Origin: an uncultured virus (IMG/VR IMGVR_UViG_3300042691_024885)
Taxonomy: Duplodnaviria; Heunggongvirae; Uroviricota; Caudoviricetes
DNA: 20,000 bases
Virus record (IMG/VR): IMGVR_UViG_3300042691_024885
Direction: 5' to 3' (one strand)
Shown here: positions 3,038 to 20,000 of the stretch, piece by piece
Layout: each line of letters opens with the position of its first letter
Numbering within the stretch: position 1 is the first letter of the stretch
Position numbers and translations under genes: made by a program
Notes under the pieces: generated by a model
What the model was told of the DNA's origin: nothing
Databases searched by the model: none
The model's input: the letters and a program-made list of their open reading frames with translations, nothing else

Positions 3038-3838
3038 ATGAAAGAAAAGAACACAGGAGCACCTATTAATCAAGAAGAGATATCTCATTACTTGAAAGAT
3101 ATTAGAAGAATTAAAGTGATGACACCTGAAAGAGAGAAGGAGTTGTCAAAAATTATGATGTCTGAAAATTTGACAGAACGTCAAAGAAAGGAAGTTGAAC
3201 ATGAATTACTTATTGGTAATTTGAGATTCGTCATTACTGTGGCAAAACAATATCAAAATCAAGGTTTACCTCTACCTGATCTAATTAATGAAGGTAATTT
3301 TGGGTTGTTAAAGGCGATCAAAAATTTTGATTGGAGTAAAAATCTACGTCTTATTTCATATGCCGTTTGGTGGATTAAACAGTCAATCATTCAATCTCTT
3401 AATGATCATGCGAGAACTATACGACTACCGGTTAATGTGGTTCAAGAATTACAAAAATCTAAGAAGGAGATTGAAAACAATGGAGGTAAATTATCCGATA
3501 AGTTTTCAACCTTACCTAGTACTATTGACTTGGATATGAATATCAATGAAGAGGGTGATACTTTGATTGATATGATTCCAAATATGGATGCGGACGCTCC
3601 TGATTCCGCATTTAATACTAAAGATCTCCTAAAGGATAAATTGATGAAAACTTTGGATGTGTTAGATGAGAGAGAAAGAATAATTGTTGAGGATTATTTT
3701 GGATTGACTGGTACACCAAGAACTTTAGAAGATATTGGTAGTGATTTTGGGCTTACAAAGGAAAGAGTTAGACAAATTAAGGAGAAAGCATTACGTAAAT
3801 TAAGAAACGACTCTTCAGAATTATTTGAATATTTATAA
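3038..3838 (+). CDS. rpoD: Sigma-70 family RNA polymerase sigma factor (RpoD/RpoS-like, short Bacteroidota type lacking region 1.1)
   Basis: Region 1.2 YLKDI, region 2 NLRFVITVAKQYQNQGLPLPDLINEGNFGL...SYAVWWIKQSI...RTIRLP, region 4 TLEDIGSDFGLTKERVRQIKEKALRKLR. Confidence 0.95.
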   Translation: MKEKNTGAPINQEEISHYLKDIRRIKVMTPEREKELSKIMMSENLTERQRKEVEHELLIGNLRFVITVAKQYQNQGLPLPDLINEGNFGLLKAIKNFDWSKNLRLISYAVWWIKQSIIQSLNDHARTIRLPVNVVQELQKSKKEIENNGGKLSDKFSTLPSTIDLDMNINEEGDTLIDMIPNMDADAPDSAFNTKDLLKDKLMKTLDVLDERERIIVEDYFGLTGTPRTLEDIGSDFGLTKERVRQIKEKALRKLRNDSSELFEYL

Positions 3839-12698: not shown

Positions 12699-13631
12699 AT
12701 GAATACTGAAAATTATTATGAAATACTTGGTGTTGATGAAAACGCAACACAAGAAGACATAAAAAAAGCATATAGAAAATTAGCTAAAGAAAACCATCCT
12801 GATAAAGGTGGGGATGAAGAAACATTTAAAAAGATTTCAGTTGCTTATGACTCATTAGGAGATGAAAACAAGAGAAAAGAATATGACTTCCAAAGAAAGA
12901 ATCCATTTGGTCAAGGCGGAGGAGGATATAATGACTTATTTCAAAAAATGTATGATCAAGCATTTGGTGGTACAAGAGAAAGAAATAGAGTTCATGATTT
13001 AGTTATTGATACTCAAGTAAATGTTATAGAATCTTATTTGGGTTCAAACAAAAAGATTACATACAAAAGAAAAATAAAATGTGATCCTTGTAATGGTGGT
13101 GGAGGAGATAAGGTTGTTTGTAATGGGTGTGGAGGTCAAGGTCATACTATTAGACAAATGGGTTCAGGAATGTTTGTTCAAATAGTTCAGGTTGCTTGTA
13201 ATGTTTGTAATGGTACTGGTCAAATGATTATTAAACCTTGTTATAATTGTCATGGAAGTGGAACAAAAGACGAAATGAAATCTGTTGAAATACAATTACC
13301 TCAAGGTATTGATGATGGTCAATTTGTAAGACTACAAGGTGTTGGTGATTTTAGGAATGGGATTTATGGTAATTTGGTTATTAGAGTAAGGTTGATTCCA
13401 TATAATAATTTTGAAAAATTAGGACAACATTTGGTTTACAATGCTTATTTTAATTATGAAGATCTTAAAAAAGATACTCTTGTAATACCACATCCTGATG
13501 GTGATTTATCTATTAAATTACCACAAGTATTTGATACAACAAAACCATTGAGAATTAAATCCAAAGGGTTTAAAAATGAAGTCATTGGGGATCTCCTAAT
13601 TAATCAGCATGTAAGATTTGAAAGGGATTAA
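12699..13631 (+). CDS. dnaJ: DnaJ/Hsp40 chaperone (class A)
   Basis: J domain with HPD (YYEILGV...[17 protein letters not shown]), short G/F region, four CxxCxGxG repeats, C-terminal substrate-binding domain. Confidence 0.95.
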
Positions 13632-13870: not shown

Positions 13871-14722
13871 ATGTGTGTAAGTTATATAGGTGGTAAGTCA
13901 AAAATCGCCCCACAATTAATAATCCCTAATATCCCAAAAGATATTGAAACGTATGTTGAACCATTTAGTGGTCAATTTTGGACATTTTTTAAAATGAACT
14001 TGGAAGACTACCCAAATTTAAAAACTGTCGTTTATAACGATTTTAATAAATTGAATTATAATATGTATCAATGCTTAAAGGATCATAAACAACTCCTTCA
14101 GGAATGTGAGAAGTTGTTAATTCAAGAAAAAGGAGTTTACCCGACTAATCCAATTTGTGGAGAATTGTTCGCCAGGTTTCAGGCTGAAATATTTGATGAA
14201 AATTTCAGGGTTAAAGCTTATGATTATGAAACCGCAGCCAAATATGTTTATGTATTAACACAAGTATTTTCAGGATCTAACCCTGCTAAATCTAAATTCA
14301 TTGATTTAAAGGGTAAATATCACTCTAAATTCACATCATTTAAAAATAAGTTAAAAAATGAAAATTGGCAAAAAATGTTTGAAAGAATAGATTTTGTTGA
14401 AAATATGGACTTCCAAAACGTAATTGAAAAATATGATACCTCAACGACATATTTTTATGTTGACCCGCCTTATTATGTGGTTGGAGAAGGGAATTATTAC
14501 TCAAATCACGACTTTGATAGAAATGATCATGAGAGATTAGCCAAAACATTACACAATATAAAAGGTAAGTTTAGTCTTTCATATTATGACTTTGAACTAC
14601 TTCACGAATGGTTCCCTGAAGATCAATACAGATGGGAAAAGAAACAATTTGCCAAGGCGGCATCGGCAAAAAAAGGTGAGAAACAAAACATGGGAGAAGA
14701 GTTACTCATAATGAATTATTGA
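13871..14722 (+). CDS. DNA adenine methyltransferase, Dam/D12 class
   Basis: SYIGGKS, YVEPFSG, VYNDFN, catalytic YVDPPYY, KGKFSLSY, terminal EELLIMNY. Target sequence cannot be read from the window. Confidence 0.92.
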   Translation: MCVSYIGGKSKIAPQLIIPNIPKDIETYVEPFSGQFWTFFKMNLEDYPNLKTVVYNDFNKLNYNMYQCLKDHKQLLQECEKLLIQEKGVYPTNPICGELFARFQAEIFDENFRVKAYDYETAAKYVYVLTQVFSGSNPAKSKFIDLKGKYHSKFTSFKNKLKNENWQKMFERIDFVENMDFQNVIEKYDTSTTYFYVDPPYYVVGEGNYYSNHDFDRNDHERLAKTLHNIKGKFSLSYYDFELLHEWFPEDQYRWEKKQFAKAASAKKGEKQNMGEELLIMNY

Positions 14723-14772: not shown

Positions 14773-16617
14773 ATGGAATTAGTAAAAATTTTATCATCCG
14801 TAGTACAAGAAAAAGTTACCCCAAAGTTGAAGTTGACCGAGATATCAAATAAATTGATGAATCAACTAATTGTAAAGTTCAGTAAGGAAACTGAAGATGC
14901 TGAAGATCAAATTAAAACATATATTAACGACTTTGAAAAGATCAAAGCCGGATTACCAGCAGAAAAAAGAGATATTACAAAATATAGTTATGAACAATTG
15001 GTTTCTACTATTAGGTCTAAAAGAATCAAGAAAGAAGAAGGGGAGTTGTTCAAAAAGTATATGCCAAAAGTAAAAGGATCTGATCAAAGAGTTGTAAAGA
15101 GATTGATCAAAAAGTTTTTGGAGATTAGAGATCTACTTCCTAAAGGTGAGAGAGATTTAATGAGATATTCATATTTAAGATTAAGTGAATTAATTCAAAA
15201 CAAATTCCCAACTCTAATTACAAAATATGCTTATGATAAGTTTAGAAAGGAAAGAAGTGACTTAACTAATGAGCAGATATTATCATATGTGGAAAGATAT
15301 ATTGATCTGTATGATAGATTAGAACCAGGAACTCCACCAATTTTATTAATGTCATTTGATGATCTTGAGGCTGCGCTTGACCATTTACCTGATGGTGATG
15401 ATACTCAAACAAAGAAAACAGATGATTTTGGTGATATTGAAACTATCTATGATAAGGATAATTTATATATCTTTAAACCAAACGGGAAAGAACAATGTAT
15501 TAGATTGGCACATGGTAGACCTTGGTGTACATCAAGAATAGGTGGAGGTAACCTTTACTATAACTATCGTTTGGAGAACAACCTAACACTTTATTATGTT
15601 ATTGATAGAGATAAACCATATGATGATCTAAACTTTGCTGTTGTTATTCTTGTTGATACTTACGGTGGAAAAAGAATTGCTGACGGTAAAAATATGGCGG
15701 GAGGATTCTCAGGACATAGAGTTGAGAATTGGAGAACAATTTCAGAAAAAGTTCCTAAATTGGCAGATAAAGAATATTTGTTTACTCCAGATCCTCTAAC
15801 TGATAGAGAAAAAGCGTTATTGAGAAAGTACAAAAATATCTCCATCCAAGATGATGCGGTTAAGGAACTTGGATCTGTTGAGGATGCTGAATTTTGGCTT
15901 GAAATATCAAGTCCAAATCTAACAAACAGACCTAATGTTTATATTAATTTACCTGTTGAACTTAAAAAGAAATACATTTCATTGGGTATGGATTTAACTG
16001 GTGATATGATTAAGAACTCCGAACCTGAAGTTGTTAAATATTATTTGGCAAGAAAGATTGATTCTTTGAGAACAAAATCTTTATCACAACTTACAAGTGC
16101 GGATGTTACGTTGATCAATATGCCAACATTGAAAAACTTGAAAGAGGAATTAAAAGTTAAATATGCGGGTCAAGTAACAAGTGGAGGAGATTCAATAGTT
16201 GATATTAAGTATCCTAACGATGACAGCTCAAAATACATCGCATTGTTTGGTTTTGATGAGTTATTTAAAAATTTACCTGATACAATATCATATTTTACTT
16301 TGGTTAATAAATCAACAGATACTTTAAATTTGGATATACCACCATCAATTTCCAAGTTCAAAAACTTAATTGCGTTGGTTCTTGAAAATTGTGTTAAAAC
16401 ATTACCTGAAGAAATTGGACAAATAGATTCTTTAATGTTCTTAACTTTACAGAATAATCCTAATTTGGTATCTTTACCTGAATCTTTGGCTGATCTTGAT
16501 TTCTTGGAATTGATTTCATTGTCAGGATCAAGCCCGAATGTTCAAATACCGGAAAGACTTAGAAGAAAAATGATGGAAGAAGGAGACGGATTCTATCACA
16601 TTGATCACGAATCTTAA
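14773..16617 (+). CDS. Multidomain protein: N-terminal helical repeats, central WCT-motif domain, C-terminal leucine-rich repeats
   Basis: Repeat units ending RDITKYSYEQL, RDLMRYSYLRL and PILLMSFDDL; HGRPWCTS...YYNY...LYYVID; LRR units IPPSISKFKNLIALVL, LPEEIGQIDSLMFLTLQNN, LVSLPESLADLDFLELISL. Confidence 0.8.
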   Translation: MELVKILSSVVQEKVTPKLKLTEISNKLMNQLIVKFSKETEDAEDQIKTYINDFEKIKAGLPAEKRDITKYSYEQLVSTIRSKRIKKEEGELFKKYMPKVKGSDQRVVKRLIKKFLEIRDLLPKGERDLMRYSYLRLSELIQNKFPTLITKYAYDKFRKERSDLTNEQILSYVERYIDLYDRLEPGTPPILLMSFDDLEAALDHLPDGDDTQTKKTDDFGDIETIYDKDNLYIFKPNGKEQCIRLAHGRPWCTSRIGGGNLYYNYRLENNLTLYYVIDRDKPYDDLNFAVVILVDTYGGKRIADGKNMAGGFSGHRVENWRTISEKVPKLADKEYLFTPDPLTDREKALLRKYKNISIQDDAVKELGSVEDAEFWLEISSPNLTNRPNVYINLPVELKKKYISLGMDLTGDMIKNSEPEVVKYYLARKIDSLRTKSLSQLTSADVTLINMPTLKNLKEELKVKYAGQVTSGGDSIVDIKYPNDDSSKYIALFGFDELFKNLPDTISYFTLVNKSTDTLNLDIPPSISKFKNLIALVLENCVKTLPEEIGQIDSLMFLTLQNNPNLVSLPESLADLDFLELISLSGSSPNVQIPERLRRKMMEEGDGFYHIDHES

Positions 16618-16629
16618 AAAAACAATATT

Positions 16630-16929
16630 ATGGGAAATGTTGACGTTGAAATTTATCTATCGCAACTAATTAATTTCTTTGAGAATAATCCAAACGATCT
16701 AATGGAATTAATCGGAGAAGTTCAAAAGGATGACTTTTATAGGAAAGTTAAAGAGAAGTGTGAGGATAATTTGAAAAATGGCGAAGACATTAGTTTAACT
16801 AGAACCCAAATAGTTGATATTGTATTAGAACTTAAGTTTGGTGAAGTAGAGAGAGAAGGAAATGTTGTTGCACATAGTATTGATAAGTTTTTCCAAAAAA
16901 CAAAGTTCGGATTAATAGGATTAAATTAA
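16630..16929 (+). CDS. Hypothetical protein (99 aa)
   Basis: Intact ORF with A-rich start context. Confidence 0.75.
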   Translation: MGNVDVEIYLSQLINFFENNPNDLMELIGEVQKDDFYRKVKEKCEDNLKNGEDISLTRTQIVDIVLELKFGEVEREGNVVAHSIDKFFQKTKFGLIGLN

Positions 16930-17705
16930 TTAATATAAATAACTTTACCATTTTTTAAATAACGATAAATTGAAGTGTGAGAAATACCCATTCCTTCCAT
17001 ACATTCTTTTATTGATGTGTATGTTTTACCTGAATTTACGTCCATTACTTTTTTTGCGTTAGGACTTTTACCGCCTTTATTATCCCTCATTAATGCTGAT
17101 TGTCTTATTTTCTCAATAACTTCTGGGTTTTTAGTTGGATTATTAGTTAGGTTTCTCAACCTCAAATCTTCTCTAGGTTTATTTTTTCTTGGATGATTTT
17201 CAGTCCCATTTAACCAAATGGATTTTTGTGATTCACTAACTTTTTTTTTGGTTTCATTATTTTTCATTGGATTATTTTTTTTCATTCTAATACTTTGTTT
17301 TATTTTATTATGTTGTAGTTTCATTGGATTGTCATCTGAACTCATCCGATTTTTTTGTATTGATTTAACTAATTCTGAAACAATAACACCTTTAGATCCC
17401 TCACCACCATCTGTAAAATTAACTAAAGTCCCCTCATTTAAATCTTTCCTACCATACTTTTTTATGTATTTAATTTCTGATAACATGGATTCATCCCAAG
17501 TTAAAAAATCCTCAATAATCTCAACCGACCAAGAAACTTTATTTGTTATTCTAATCCAATATTTATTATGTTTATGAATAGCATAAGCACGACTATATGT
17601 GTTGGTATCACATTTACCACTAGCTTTTATATTAACGGTTCCTCTACCAACATAAAAAACTTCATTATTGTCTAATCTTCTGTGTAAATAAACATAACAT
17701 CTCAT
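16926..17705 (-). CDS. Free-standing GIY-YIG-like homing endonuclease with NUMOD-type DNA-binding repeats
   Basis: Likely start MRCYVY at 17705. YVYLH...FYVGRG...R...E...YG...GTLVNFTDGGEG, then NPMK/NPTK repeats and a C-terminal NUMOD1/HTH-like KKVMDVNSGKTYTSIKEC...ISHTSIYRYL. Confidence 0.85.
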   Translation of the reverse strand: MRCYVYLHRRLDNNEVFYVGRGTVNIKASGKCDTNTYSRAYAIHKHNKYWIRITNKVSWSVEIIEDFLTWDESMLSEIKYIKKYGRKDLNEGTLVNFTDGGEGSKGVIVSELVKSIQKNRMSSDDNPMKLQHNKIKQSIRMKKNNPMKNNETKKKVSESQKSIWLNGTENHPRKNKPREDLRLRNLTNNPTKNPEVIEKIRQSALMRDNKGGKSPNAKKVMDVNSGKTYTSIKECMEGMGISHTSIYRYLKNGKVIYIN

Positions 17706-17766
17706 ATATATAAATATATGGGTTTGGTATAAACACCCCATAATTTTAAAATTTTTTTTGATGTTA

Positions 17767-17823: not shown

Positions 17824-18579
17824 ATGATCTACACACCAGAACTTATCAAATCAGTGGCACCCTCAATTTTTGCAACATCAGCGTCTAATAAGTTGTCTAA
17901 TAAATACGTATTCGTACCTACAGACCAACTTATTGAATATTTTGATCGTGAAGGTTGGCAAATTTCAGATGTTAAACAAACAGGAAAAGGAATTCACGCA
18001 ACACACCAAGTAAGATTTCGCAATGGAGAACTTCCACCTGTAGGGGATACATTGGTTGAGGCAATCATTAAAAATTCTCACAATGGAATGTCAACATTAT
18101 CAGTTTCCGCAGGATTACACAGAGTATGTTGCTCAAACGGATTGACGGTTCCCACATCAGTTGCGGACAAATTCAACGTAAGACATAGCGGGTTTGAACT
18201 TGACGATGTAAAACGATTGATGGACGGGTTCTCAAAGAAATTACCATTGATCCAAGGATCTGTTGGACGAATGATGGAACGAGAACTCACAATTGATGAA
18301 CAAATCCAATACGTTCAGAAAGCATCAAAAATCCGATGGGCGGAAGGGTCAATCCCAAGTGACAACCAACTCGTTGATATCCTTACACCAAATCGTGTGG
18401 AGGACAATAAGAACGACTTGTGGACAACATTCAACGTGGTACAAGAGAAGTTTGTACGAGGAGGTTTTGACTACCGAACTAATACGGGTCGTAAATCAAA
18501 ACTACGAGATCTTAAAAGTATTATGGCGGTTAATACAATCAACACAAAACTTTGGGAACTTGCCGAAGAAATGATTTAA
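17824..18579 (+). CDS. DUF932 (DUF945) family phage/plasmid protein
   Basis: APSIFA...SNKYVFVPT...EGW...H.VRFR...NSHNG...AGLHRVCCSNGL...RH...R.ED...DLWTTFNVVQE...GG...N.KLW.LAE. ATG 17824 is preferred to the upstream TTG because the promoter lies between them. Confidence 0.88.
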   Translation: MIYTPELIKSVAPSIFATSASNKLSNKYVFVPTDQLIEYFDREGWQISDVKQTGKGIHATHQVRFRNGELPPVGDTLVEAIIKNSHNGMSTLSVSAGLHRVCCSNGLTVPTSVADKFNVRHSGFELDDVKRLMDGFSKKLPLIQGSVGRMMERELTIDEQIQYVQKASKIRWAEGSIPSDNQLVDILTPNRVEDNKNDLWTTFNVVQEKFVRGGFDYRTNTGRKSKLRDLKSIMAVNTINTKLWELAEEMI

Positions 18580-18586
18580 AAACAAC

Positions 18587-18612
18587 GGAGGGTTAATCAC
18601 CCTCCTTTTTTT
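18587..18612 (+). terminator. Intrinsic terminator
   Basis: GGAGGGT-TAATC-ACCCTCC followed by T7, immediately after the DUF932 stop. Confidence 0.9.
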
Positions 18613-18618
18613 GGTAAT

Positions 18619-19008
18619 ATGAAAAAACAGAACATTATAATAAATTGGTTAAACAAGGAGTTTGGTAATTTAACTAAAGTAGTTAGAGGTGATAAAACAT
18701 TTTACATTGATAAGGATAGATTACCGTTATTATTTTATTGTCATGATAAAAAAAATGGGTTTTTTTATGTGAGTTATAAAAGAATTTGGTTACTTTTTGA
18801 AACCATTTTTGGTATGGAATATCAACAAATACAGGATATCCTGAAGATATGGTTGGAGGAAACCTATAATTTGAGGGGACTCACACCCTACTATTTTCAG
18901 TATTCCTCTTATTCCACGTTGGAGGAAACCTATAATTTGAGGGGACTCACACCCTGCACAGACGAATCTCTTATTTACAGAAACTGTTGGAGGAAACCTA
19001 TAATTTGA
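18619..19008 (+). CDS. Hypothetical small protein whose C-terminus is encoded by the repeat-spacer array
   Basis: About 78 aa of unique sequence, then LEETYNLRGLTP twice (repeats 1 and 2); stop codon lies in repeat 3. Confidence 0.7.
   Translation: MKKQNIIINWLNKEFGNLTKVVRGDKTFYIDKDRLPLLFYCHDKKNGFFYVSYKRIWLLFETIFGMEYQQIQDILKIWLEETYNLRGLTPYYFQYSSYSTLEETYNLRGLTPCTDESLIYRNCWRKPII
18852..19008 (+). CRISPR. Orphan CRISPR-like mini-array, type VI-B-like 36-bp repeat
   Basis: GTTGGAGGAAACCTATAATTTGAGGGGACTCACACC identical at 18852-18887 and 18918-18953, plus a 23-bp truncated copy at 18986-19008. Spacers are 30 bp (18888-18917) and 32 bp (18954-18985). No cas gene in the window. Confidence 0.65.
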
Positions 19009-19014
19009 TTTAAT

Positions 19015-19356
19015 ATGGAAAATAATGAAATAAAATATTTTAGTAGGGTTGAAGATTTCTTGAAATCCTTATTAACTAAAACTGGTAAAGTATATAGTGT
19101 GATTGATTGTATGGATCCAATACCATTAACACCTGAACTTCTATTAACTAAAAAATTTACAACTGAATATTTAAATAGTAAGTCATATGGTGGTAGTTTA
19201 GTTCATTTAGATGGTATATTTAGACATCAATCAGGAATTTATATTTACCTATCAAAAACAGAAGTTGAAACTACTTATAAGATAAAGATAATATACGATG
19301 TAATACAACTTGATGAGGTTATATTATTCATAAAAAATTTAATGAGATTAAAATAA
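19015..19356 (+). CDS. Hypothetical protein (113 aa)
   Basis: Intact ORF starting 6 nt after the array. Confidence 0.75.
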   Translation: MENNEIKYFSRVEDFLKSLLTKTGKVYSVIDCMDPIPLTPELLLTKKFTTEYLNSKSYGGSLVHLDGIFRHQSGIYIYLSKTEVETTYKIKIIYDVIQLDEVILFIKNLMRLK

Positions 19357-19402: not shown

Positions 19403-20000
19403 ATGAGCACACAAAAAGGACACATATATAAAATAACAAATCTAATAAACAAAAAAGAATATATTGGATGTACGATTAATTCTATAAATAAAAGATTTGA
19501 AGAACACGTTTACAGATGTTTAAAAACTGACTCTAATACTAAATTTTGTAATTCTATTAGAAAATATGGGGTTGAAAATTTTAATATAGAAATAATTGAA
19601 GAATGTAATGTATTAAATATTTATGAAAGAGAAAAATTTTATATTACCGAATTCAAAACGTATAAAAATGGATTAAATTCTACATTTGGTGGTGAAGGGT
19701 GTTTAGGATATGTTCATTCGCCTGAAATAAGGAAAAAAATTTCGGAAAATACTAAAAATGGTAACTCACACAAAGGTAAAACTTATGAAGAGTTATATGG
19801 GGACAAGGCGGACGAAGAACGAGAAAAAAGAAGATTATCAGTTAAAAAAGGTTGGGGATCAATATCAAAAGAAGAAAAAGAAAAACGAGTTAGTAAAATT
19901 TATGAAACTAAACAAAAAAACTCAAAATATGGGGTTGAATTAGTTAAGGAAATAAAACAAAAAATAAATGAGGGGATAAAAATTAAACAATTAACAGAAC
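19403..20000 (+). CDS. GIY-YIG homing endonuclease with NUMOD3-like motif (partial, runs off the window; not in the supplied ORF track)
   Basis: MSTQKGHIYKITNLINKKEYIGCT...KRFEEH...SIRKYGVENFNIEIIEEC...EREKFYI...NGLNSTFGGEG...HSPEIRKKIS. Confidence 0.9.
   Translation, partial: MSTQKGHIYKITNLINKKEYIGCTINSINKRFEEHVYRCLKTDSNTKFCNSIRKYGVENFNIEIIEECNVLNIYEREKFYITEFKTYKNGLNSTFGGEGCLGYVHSPEIRKKISENTKNGNSHKGKTYEELYGDKADEEREKRRLSVKKGWGSISKEEKEKRVSKIYETKQKNSKYGVELVKEIKQKINEGIKIKQLTE

Follow-up and report, generated by a model that had tools for sequence, protein, structure and literature searches.

The stretch of DNA analyzed here, hereafter the window, is 20,000 nt long and corresponds to bases 2020-22019 of a 33,144-nt IMG/VR record of an uncultured virus of the Caudoviricetes (IMGVR_UViG_3300042691_024885), which has a G+C content of ~30% and an estimated completeness of 11%. 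The window encodes a sigma factor, DnaJ, a Dam-type methylase and GIY-YIG endonucleases, and it carries a small gene that runs directly into a repeat-spacer array. The features of this locus are as follows:

18587-18605, predicted on both strands: terminator-like hairpin, G+C-rich with T-runs on either side, 13 nt upstream of the ORF
18619-19008, + strand: ORF of 129 aa that continues from repeat 1 across repeat 2 and both spacers to a TGA in the truncated repeat 3
18619-18887, + strand: conserved phage domain of ~90 aa, defined by homologues, an AF2 model, a codon test and a profile search
18852-18887, + strand: repeat 1, 36 nt, which doubles as codons 78-90 of the domain
18888-18917, + strand: spacer 1, 30 nt, with a perfect protospacer on separate freshwater metagenome contigs that have unrelated flanks
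18918-18953, + strand: repeat 2, 36 nt, 100% identical to repeat 1
18954-18985, + strand: spacer 2, 32 nt, with a perfect protospacer in a secreted M28-peptidase gene on a Flavobacteriales chromosome
18986-19008, + strand: truncated repeat 3, the first 23 nt of the repeat, which retains the invariant core ACCTATAATTT and ends 6 nt before the next ATG
19015-19356, + strand: downstream gene of 113 aa, with no assigned function

A repeat search of the window showed that 18852-18889 and 18918-18955 are identical (100%) and that a third copy at 18986-19008 matches the first 23 nt, with start-to-start distances of 66 and 68. Related arrays and protospacer matches set the boundaries of the unit, and we therefore consider the repeat to be 36 nt and not 38 nt in length. 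The 129-aa ORF reads repeat 1 as (W)LEETYNLRGLTP and loses the frame after spacer 2. A preliminary description, made from the letters and an ORF list, had reported that the frame of the ORF is kept across spacer 1 and repeat 2, with the TGA in repeat 3 as its end, that no AT-rich leader separates the gene from the array, and that the unit is flanked by a terminator and the next gene. The ORF list and the repeat search agree on the first point, the position of repeat 1 within the ORF bears out the second, and the hairpin at 18587-18605 together with the ATG at 19015 accounts for the third. Because repeat 1 lies inside the ORF there is no non-coding leader at the window locus, and the A+T-rich non-coding leader that is a generic feature of CRISPR arrays is absent from this locus and across the family of related loci. 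The 113-aa downstream gene is probably not part of the mechanism, since it adjoins the module in only 7 of 49 loci.

The protein domain gave no match to a known family or fold in the resources searched. Pfam and PHROGs returned nothing for the 129-aa ORF, tblastn against INPHARED phages gave no match, and a cluster look-up yielded 'hypothetical protein' only. A confident AF2 model of the domain (pLDDT 91.9) predicts one helix, four strands and two helices, with the last helix partly encoded by repeat 1 and an RGxTP tail that also derives from repeat 1. Foldseek found no PDB entry at E ≤ 0.001, a wide structure search with VIA-align reached a best Z of 4.3 without matching a solved fold, and a search of the ESM Atlas matched no cluster (best scores 0.79). 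In the homologue alignment, the part encoded by repeat 1 is the most conserved, with W78, L79, T82, Y83, N84 and L85 invariant, and the tails differ after it, many of them finishing in the repeat read in one of three frames. Single-base codon differences across codons 9-77 comprised 1162 synonymous (40%) and 1728 nonsynonymous changes, a synonymous share above the expectation from random mutation, and we conclude that the domain is under purifying selection. No variation occurs in the repeat core ACCTATAATTT, third codon positions and the rare Thr codon ACC included, which shows an additional constraint at the nucleotide level.

We found the domain in 106 ORFs across the 49 loci, where it also occurs as an in-frame C-terminal fusion on unrelated proteins, including an Fe/Mn superoxide dismutase, a protein with a weak DHH match below the Pfam cut-off, and others. 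A profile search recovered 719 cluster representatives at E ≤ 1e-3, with 151 passing E ≤ 1e-10, and the domain is mostly C-terminal. The distant members have the identical layout with other repeats, each of which is the member's own C-terminal coding sequence. Multiple copies of the module occur, and its conservation extends down to ~40% protein identity. No conserved neighbor gene was found in the 49 loci, the best neighbor family occurring in 15 of 49. The domain may be the repeat-specific component of the system; the preliminary description had suggested, as one of two options, a dedicated partner that might bind or process the repeat RNA.

The homologue search with aa 1-86 retrieved 49 homologues (identity 49-100%), and the repeat was present at the 3′ end of the gene in 45 of the 49 viral loci encoding a relative, on the gene strand in all. 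Recurrence of the same layout in 45/49 related viral loci places the gene-plus-array pattern far beyond chance. The preliminary description had proposed to test whether homologues of aa 1-90 are each followed by an array whose first repeat encodes the protein end and whether repeat and protein co-vary. The first point is borne out by the 45/49 viral loci and the distant members, and the second by the distant members, in which a different repeat goes with a different C-terminus. Across the family we counted 78 arrays or single repeats with copy numbers of 1-8. The 74 distinct spacers measured 30 nt (33 spacers), 29 nt (17), 31 nt (16), 32 nt (7) or 33 nt (1), so that with a 36-nt repeat and 29-33-nt spacers the arrays have the architecture of a generic CRISPR array, which consists of direct repeats of 23-50 nt and unique spacers of similar length. 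In most arrays the terminal repeat is cut after 22-23 nt and abuts the next start codon, lying 6-10 nt before the ATG; this start codon is often that of the next paralogue, and tandem gene-array modules are consequently common.

The arrays turn over, in a way that fits gain at their gene-proximal end. The flanks of loci L022 and L037 match at 96.7% identity (1197 nt upstream) and 98.9% identity (1002 nt downstream), and the two loci have no spacers in common; six loci that agree in repeat variant and trailer likewise carry wholly different spacers. Conserved spacers (sp11/63 and sp30/58/66) and degenerate repeats are found at the gene-distal end, and L042 differs from L040, L041 and L043 in missing only the gene-proximal spacer. 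The family thus has the polarity of CRISPR arrays, with a variable end and a conserved end that closes in a degenerate terminal repeat. Because old spacers and degenerate repeats lie far from the gene and L042 lacks the gene-proximal spacer only, the gene end behaves as the leader. Contigs from four metagenome runs that mapped on the window showed no alternative spacer content.

The source of the spacers was traced from metagenomes to bacterial genomes. In two runs from different studies, separate contigs matched either spacer 1 alone (18888-18917) or spacer 2 alone (18954-18986) with 0 mismatches and unrelated flanks. The matches to spacer 1 alone showed loose ends at 18888 and 18917 (X8, X12). 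A metagenome scan with a piece of spacer 2 led to a 13.5-kb bacterial contig (G+C 41%) with a T9SS sorting-domain protein and housekeeping genes, on which the target is a secreted M28 peptidase. This contig belongs to the species-level genome G422, a relative of a Flavobacteriales MAG, as judged by a transporter that is 100% identical, and within that genome the spacer 2 protospacer lies at G422:C10:98015-98047 (33/33 identical). The contig that matches window spacer 1 is of unassigned origin. Searches of IMG/VR with the window spacers returned only the array itself, and no protospacer for the family spacers was found in ~890 kb of related phage DNA.

Thirty-three spacers were tested against relatives of G422 (two from the window, 10 from L008, seven from L007, five from L020, four from L011 and five from L012), and 11 of them matched the G422 clade with 0-4 mismatches over contiguous lengths of 28-33 nt. 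The targets are ordinary genes that encode a peptidase, a solute-binding lipoprotein, an epimerase, CoaE, a methyltransferase, YfhO, a MutS-like protein, YceI, PurA and DnaK, and one site is intergenic. Five of the 11 protospacers are in sense orientation, four are antisense and two lie in no long frame, a distribution that does not resemble selection for RNA targets. Contig 4 of G421 carries three protospacers from two phages within 20 kb. Overall the targets resemble a random sample of the chromosome, which fits passive capture as well as purposeful guiding. On the 3′ side of the protospacers, in array orientation, A is present at +2 in 9/11 and at +3 in 9/11 (P ~1.3e-3 per position against a background of 33% A). 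This NAA motif corresponds to 5′-TTN on the opposite strand, and the spacer 1 contig also has CAA at the motif position. Spacers copied from other DNA next to a short motif, as in CRISPR systems, are therefore present in this family, on the strength of the 11/33 spacers and the spacer 1 contig. The array, its turnover, the host origin of the spacers and the flanking motif form the descriptive core of this work and are close to certain.

Both sets of observations bear on a further proposal of the preliminary description, in which the gene end is an integration site for a Cas1-Cas2-type integrase. The gain of gene-proximal spacers fits the polarity of the arrays and the spacers are captured host DNA from beside NAA, so that the integration-site part agrees with the data; the Cas1-Cas2 part found no counterpart, as the five phage records and the protospacer-bearing genomes examined yielded no Cas1.

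The array belongs to T4-like jumbo phages (~300 kb) of freshwater Flavobacteriales. Related phage records measure 107-304 kb, one of them complete at 304,365 nt (G003), and the relatives encode a T4-type portal and capsid, SprB repeats and a T9SS-associated domain. The locus is present in 20 DNA runs from 18 studies, mostly of lake and freshwater samples, and none of the 22 runs listed for it is an RNA run. Moraphages are described as aquatic jumbo phages of Flavobacteriia with genomes of 200-307 kb, DnaJ/DnaK chaperones and predicted Bacteroidota hosts (PMC12619734). The present phages may belong to this lineage, to judge by features consistent with that account, namely ~300-kb relatives, DnaJ in the window, a T4-type portal and capsid, SprB/T9SS-type domains and a freshwater habitat.

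A sister subfamily, subfamily B, keeps its arrays in frame. It comprises 13 viral loci of other phages, the longest contigs measuring 214-322 kb, and has a 36-nt repeat of which 25/36 positions are identical to the window repeat by manual count. Its 28 distinct spacers are 30, 33 or 27 nt in length, all multiples of 3, and in the ORF frame 0/28 contain a stop, compared with 8-18/28 in the five other frames (P ~5e-8). The ORF continues to the far end of the array, taking in conserved old units, and on into a conserved tail. In the window subfamily, on the other hand, the first spacer is a multiple of 3 in 20/42 cases and stops are not depleted (14/42 in frame 0, versus 19 and 16 in the other frames). 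The preliminary description had also suggested that each new spacer rewrites the protein tail, which does not hold for the window subfamily with its lengths and stops but agrees with the in-frame, stop-free arrays of subfamily B. Possible reasons for the frame constraint in subfamily B are that translation has to reach the tail or modules further on, that ribosomes cover the transcript, or that the array has a real use at the protein level. Against 41 G422 relatives, subfamily B spacers gave two weak matches only (E 5e-4 and 7e-4), they had no match in 1.2 Mb of sequence searched, and a locus search with P0075 came back empty.

We next consider the machinery that might build or use these arrays. 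Searches for Cas1, for the Nop domain and for a TnpB-type domain above cut-off each gave 0/5 among the phage records searched, and PADLOC identified no Cas protein among the 115 ORFs of phage genome G001, reporting only a WYL protein and an SNF2 helicase. The cas genes that a CRISPR-Cas system has in its locus or genome were thus not found in the phage records searched. The array-rich records used in these searches reach 37-51% completeness, and G003, the only complete genome, retains no more than a vestigial repeat; the machinery could therefore be located in phage DNA outside these records or be encoded by the host. On the host side, Cas1 was not found in at least five of the six protospacer genomes (G422, G421, G420, G411, G424 and G418), a result that is weak because these are MAGs, from which CRISPR loci often drop out. 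Cas1 was present in 8/41 relatives of G422, the more distant ones, and Cas9 in 1/5 host-clade genomes tested. The Cas1-adjacent arrays in host-clade relatives were V-A-like, II-C-like with 36 nt, or of 47-48 nt, and all are unlike the phage repeat, with ~40% similarity between the phage repeat and the II-C repeat of G432; the II-C-like arrays have a period of 66 and a 36+30 geometry equal to that of the phage arrays.

Cellular copies of the phage repeat were not found in the genomes scanned. A degenerate 21-nt pattern of the repeat, run against one genome per species for 185,579 species, gave 13 single chance matches and no array, and none of the 13 continues as the repeat. A looser 36-nt pattern gave three single matches in 401 Bacteroidia genomes, versus four for the control. 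Consensus folding of 44 distinct repeats revealed no conserved structure on either strand, a search for a tracrRNA-like anti-repeat in 589 kb of phage DNA returned only chance matches of 12-16 nt, and Rfam reported neither a CRISPR-DR nor any other credible family for 18400-19200 at E values up to 10. The repeat was also considered as a type VI-B direct repeat, which its 36 nt and 5′ GTTG fit; this assignment failed at the 3′ end, which is CACC, and for want of a conserved fold. A literature search combining a 9-nt piece of the repeat with 'Cas13b' returned no paper.

As the best explanation of these results we tentatively put forward, at somewhat less than an even chance, an adaptive array carried by the phage. 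It would sample the chromosome of the host with the gene end as leader, rely on phage machinery and yield guides against host DNA. In this model the gene itself would replace the leader, the first repeat being the last 36 nt of the coding sequence of the domain. New spacers of ~30 nt would be copied from the host chromosome, from either strand, beside NAA (5′-TTN on the other strand), and inserted at the gene-proximal repeat by a putative enzyme cutting 36 nt apart, which would duplicate the repeat. Older units would drift distally, where the repeat would degenerate or shrink to its first 22-23 nt. The array may then be transcribed into guides, which could direct a putative phage effector, of a kind that Cas models do not yet recognize, to host DNA, with shut-off of the host or degradation as the outcome. 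Inferred elements of this model are the integrase, the guide function, the transcribed strand and the role of the domain. Two results count against a guide model, in that neither a conserved repeat fold nor an anti-repeat was found, and the in-frame, stop-free arrays of subfamily B are not what a pure guide-RNA model predicts. That the arrays form a Cas-independent, phage-owned adaptive system, with the 3′ coding end of a domain that is copied many times per genome and fused to other enzymes as the integration site, and with ~30-nt host pieces chosen by the TTN/NAA motif and turned into guides for a later infection of the same host lineage or, in subfamily B, into translated cassettes, is possible, if on balance rather doubtful.

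Four other explanations were weighed against the phage-owned guide array. Host Cas1-Cas2 of a II-C-like type, with a 36-nt repeat and a 30-nt spacer, might use the 3′ end of the gene as a pseudo leader-repeat, insert pieces of degraded host chromosome at this site and leave neutral scars or a selected decoy sink that keeps new spacers out of the host's own array. Period-66 Cas1-adjacent arrays of host-clade relatives share the geometry of 36 + ~30 nt, the spacers resemble a random sample of host genes, phage cas genes were not found in the records searched, and non-canonical integration at non-CRISPR sites has reportedly been documented. We nevertheless regard this explanation as unlikely, given that Cas1 was seen only in the more distant relatives and not in at least 5/6 protospacer genomes, and that the repeat is unlike any host-clade repeat seen and absent from the cellular genomes scanned. 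The multi-copy module, conserved to ~40% identity with a repeat that co-diverges with the domain, favors instead a dedicated and long-lived mechanism. Use of the arrays at the protein level, as a cassette store in which each unit appends a conserved 12-aa motif and a variable 10-aa segment to the C-terminus of the domain, appears a little less likely still. It would account for subfamily B, where 28/28 spacers are multiples of 3 and 0/28 have an in-frame stop, where the ORF passes through the array to a conserved tail and where multi-module ORFs exist, but not for the window subfamily, where only 20/42 are multiples of 3 and stops are not depleted. Moreover, the spacers are verbatim host DNA from either strand, including non-coding DNA, in a frame unrelated to that of the host gene, and the in-frame constraint could also have another purpose, be it access to the downstream tail or to later modules or the retention of ribosomes on the RNA.

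The arrays might alternatively exploit host effectors, with phage transcripts loading host Cas9, Cas12a or Cas13b, which would be turned on the host chromosome or saturated. The 36-nt repeat starting with GTTG, the ~30-nt spacers and the NAA 3′/TTN 5′ motif are traits of class 2 systems of Bacteroidota, the wider host clade includes genomes with Cas9 and with V-A-like arrays, and use of host Cas proteins has been proposed for Cas-less phage arrays in the portions of the huge-phage study compared (Al-Shayeb et al. 2020, PMC7162821). We consider this improbable, because the mini-arrays of viruses have repeats identical to those of the host, according to the passages compared (PMC11656645), and none identical was found here: there was no array in the 185,579 species genomes, the looser pattern gave 3 versus 4 control matches in 401 Bacteroidia, similarity to the G432 II-C repeat is ~40%, Cas9 was present in 1/5 host-clade genomes, and the CAAC-3′ end and conserved fold of VI-B repeats are absent. 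Least probable, in our judgment, is that the repeats serve as iteron-like binding sites for proteins or as promoters embedded through a TATAAT core, with filler DNA in between. This would explain the invariance of the core ACCTATAATTT even at third codon positions and the form of the truncated last repeat, in which precisely this core is left, 6-10 nt ahead of the following ATG, but filler is not expected to be verbatim host DNA of fixed length taken from beside a motif. The sequence CCTATAAT was considered as a general phage promoter and dropped, as it is not a genome-wide promoter motif: it has 6 copies in the 304-kb G003, and most of the G001 copies lie within arrays.

If the arrays do constitute a Cas-independent system, it would be an offensive counterpart of CRISPR immunity with proteins unrelated to Cas1, Cas2 and known effectors. 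Cas-less phage arrays are usually explained as borrowed parts of host CRISPR systems. The family described here does not fit that explanation, because its repeat lies in phage coding sequence, co-diverges with it over hundreds of clusters and was not found in the cellular genomes scanned, and because its spacers are fresh host-chromosome DNA. Should the machinery be phage-encoded, the arrays would represent a new way to build and use adaptive guide arrays and might supply compact integrases and effectors. Were the machinery to come from the host instead, the arrays would still allow hosts to be assigned to uncultured jumbo phages, as they did here by pointing to the single species-level genome G422, and would still form a natural record of infections. 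Subfamily B poses the question of why a repeat-spacer array must be translated.

Among known systems, virus-borne mini-CRISPR arrays, reportedly described by Medvedeva and colleagues in 2019, share with the present family the absence of Cas and the presence of one to a few spacers. As summarized in the passages compared, the repeats of such mini-arrays are identical to those of the host CRISPR and their spacers mostly target related viruses (PMC11656645), whereas here the repeat was not found in the cellular genomes scanned and 11/33 spacers match the host chromosome, so that neither property is shared. RNA anti-CRISPRs (Racrs), or solitary repeat units, are likewise phage-borne CRISPR-like repeats without cas genes, but in the text compared they are solitary, intergenic, promoter-driven mimics of host repeats (Camara-Wilpert et al. 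2023, PMC10651486); the present arrays have real spacers, lie within an ORF and have no host counterpart among those found.

The II-C and VI-B arrays of Flavobacteriia resemble the phage arrays in their 36-nt repeats, ~30-nt spacers and GTTG start (PMC8092290; 10.1101/092577). The VI-B direct repeat, as given in the compared part of the preprint, is 36 nt long with pairing 5′-GUUG and CAAC-3′ ends and a poly-U loop (Smargon et al., 10.1101/092577), and VI-B loci lack cas1/2 and borrow adaptation in trans (10.1101/092577; PMC8092290). In contrast, judged by the features stated in the text of the preprint, the CAAC-3′ end and the conserved fold are absent here. The variable end here adjoins the GTTG end of the repeat, the opposite of the arrangement in F. 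columnare (Hoikkala et al. 2021, PMC8092290, in the sections compared), and Cas9 and Cas1 were not found in the protospacer-carrying genomes examined. TIGR-Tas systems (Faure et al. 2025, as covered in the relevant part of the review PMC12385481) are also non-CRISPR tandem guide arrays found largely in phages. They use two short spacers (~20 nt in total), no PAM and a Nop-domain Tas protein, whereas the present arrays have contiguous ~30-nt spacers and a flanking motif, and the Nop domain was found in 0/5 phage records.

The closest likeness among these comparisons is to the compact arrays of huge phages, and we conclude that the present family is a variant of these Cas-poor arrays. In the parts of that study compared, most CRISPR loci of huge phages are without Cas1/2/4 and many have no effector, while matches to host chromosomes were reported for some of the spacers (Al-Shayeb et al. 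2020, PMC7162821). The present family shares the giant phage, the short arrays, the lack of Cas1, Cas2 and Cas4 and the host-chromosome origin of some spacers. It differs from what is described there in having the 3′ coding end of a conserved, multi-copy domain as its first repeat, in its tandem and sometimes fused modules, in that no Cas was found where searched, in its in-frame sister subfamily, and in a repeat that matches no cellular array in the genomes scanned. The repeat-coding fusion, the multi-copy domain, the co-divergence of repeat and protein and the in-frame subfamily were not found in the text of the literature compared.

We found that the conserved ~90-aa phage domain whose C-terminal end is encoded by repeat 1 also occurs in several viral loci as an in-frame C-terminal fusion partner of unrelated proteins, including a protein with an HExxH motif and an Fe/Mn-SOD region, one that matches DHH only weakly and an unknown protein of 550 aa. 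In some ORFs, the order domain-array-domain is contained within a single frame.

ORFs with these arrangements, by viral locus:
L008:1870-3363
L034:1885-4347
L012:1885-4761
L050:1495-3300
L011:1621-3264

In a sister subfamily from other jumbo phages (L143-L155; for example L149:1501-2235), the arrays keep strictly to the reading frame. Each of its 28 spacers has a length that is a multiple of 3, none of the 28 contains a stop codon in the ORF frame, and the ORFs read through the array into a conserved tail.

The only complete genome, that of the related phage G003 (304 kb), has a single degenerate repeat at the gene end (L033, 3832-3894), and a vestigial AACCTATAAT lies shortly downstream of it, immediately 5′ of the next gene. 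This region looks like a decayed array module.

In the window, the DUF932 gene, the array module (domain gene plus array) and a 113-aa gene are flanked by two homing-endonuclease-like genes:
16926-17741, minus strand, homing-endonuclease-like gene, matched to a PHROGs homing-endonuclease family only
19403-20000, plus strand, homing-endonuclease-like gene with a GIY-YIG domain by Pfam

The window also encodes a sigma factor of the sigma-70 family that contains regions 1.2, 2 and 4 (3038-3838), a Dam-type N6-adenine methyltransferase (13871-14722), a protein of 614 aa whose C-terminal part gives a weak Pfam match to leucine-rich repeats (14773-16617), and a full-length DnaJ with J, zinc-finger and C-terminal domains (12699-13631). 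Phages of the aquatic 'moraphage' lineage, which was described in 2025 (PMC12619734), have DnaJ as a marker.

The related phage G001 encodes a small WYL-domain protein (L069:3415-3822; G001 43415-43822), 30 kb from its arrays. WYL domains are often associated with CRISPR-associated regulators.

On contig 4 of the host-clade genome G421, the protospacers of sp9, sp15 and sp48 are clustered within 20 kb (154878-174904; L131, L132), although these spacers belong to arrays on two different phage contigs. Two of the three protospacers also occur in a second genome, G411, 1.3 kb apart. The clustering may mark a hot spot for spacer acquisition.

The phage repeat is unlike any of the arrays in more distant relatives of the host clade (L118, G432 contig 23, 1-160; L134/L135), which comprise type II-C arrays with a 47-nt repeat adjoining cas9-cas1-cas2 as well as V-A-like arrays.
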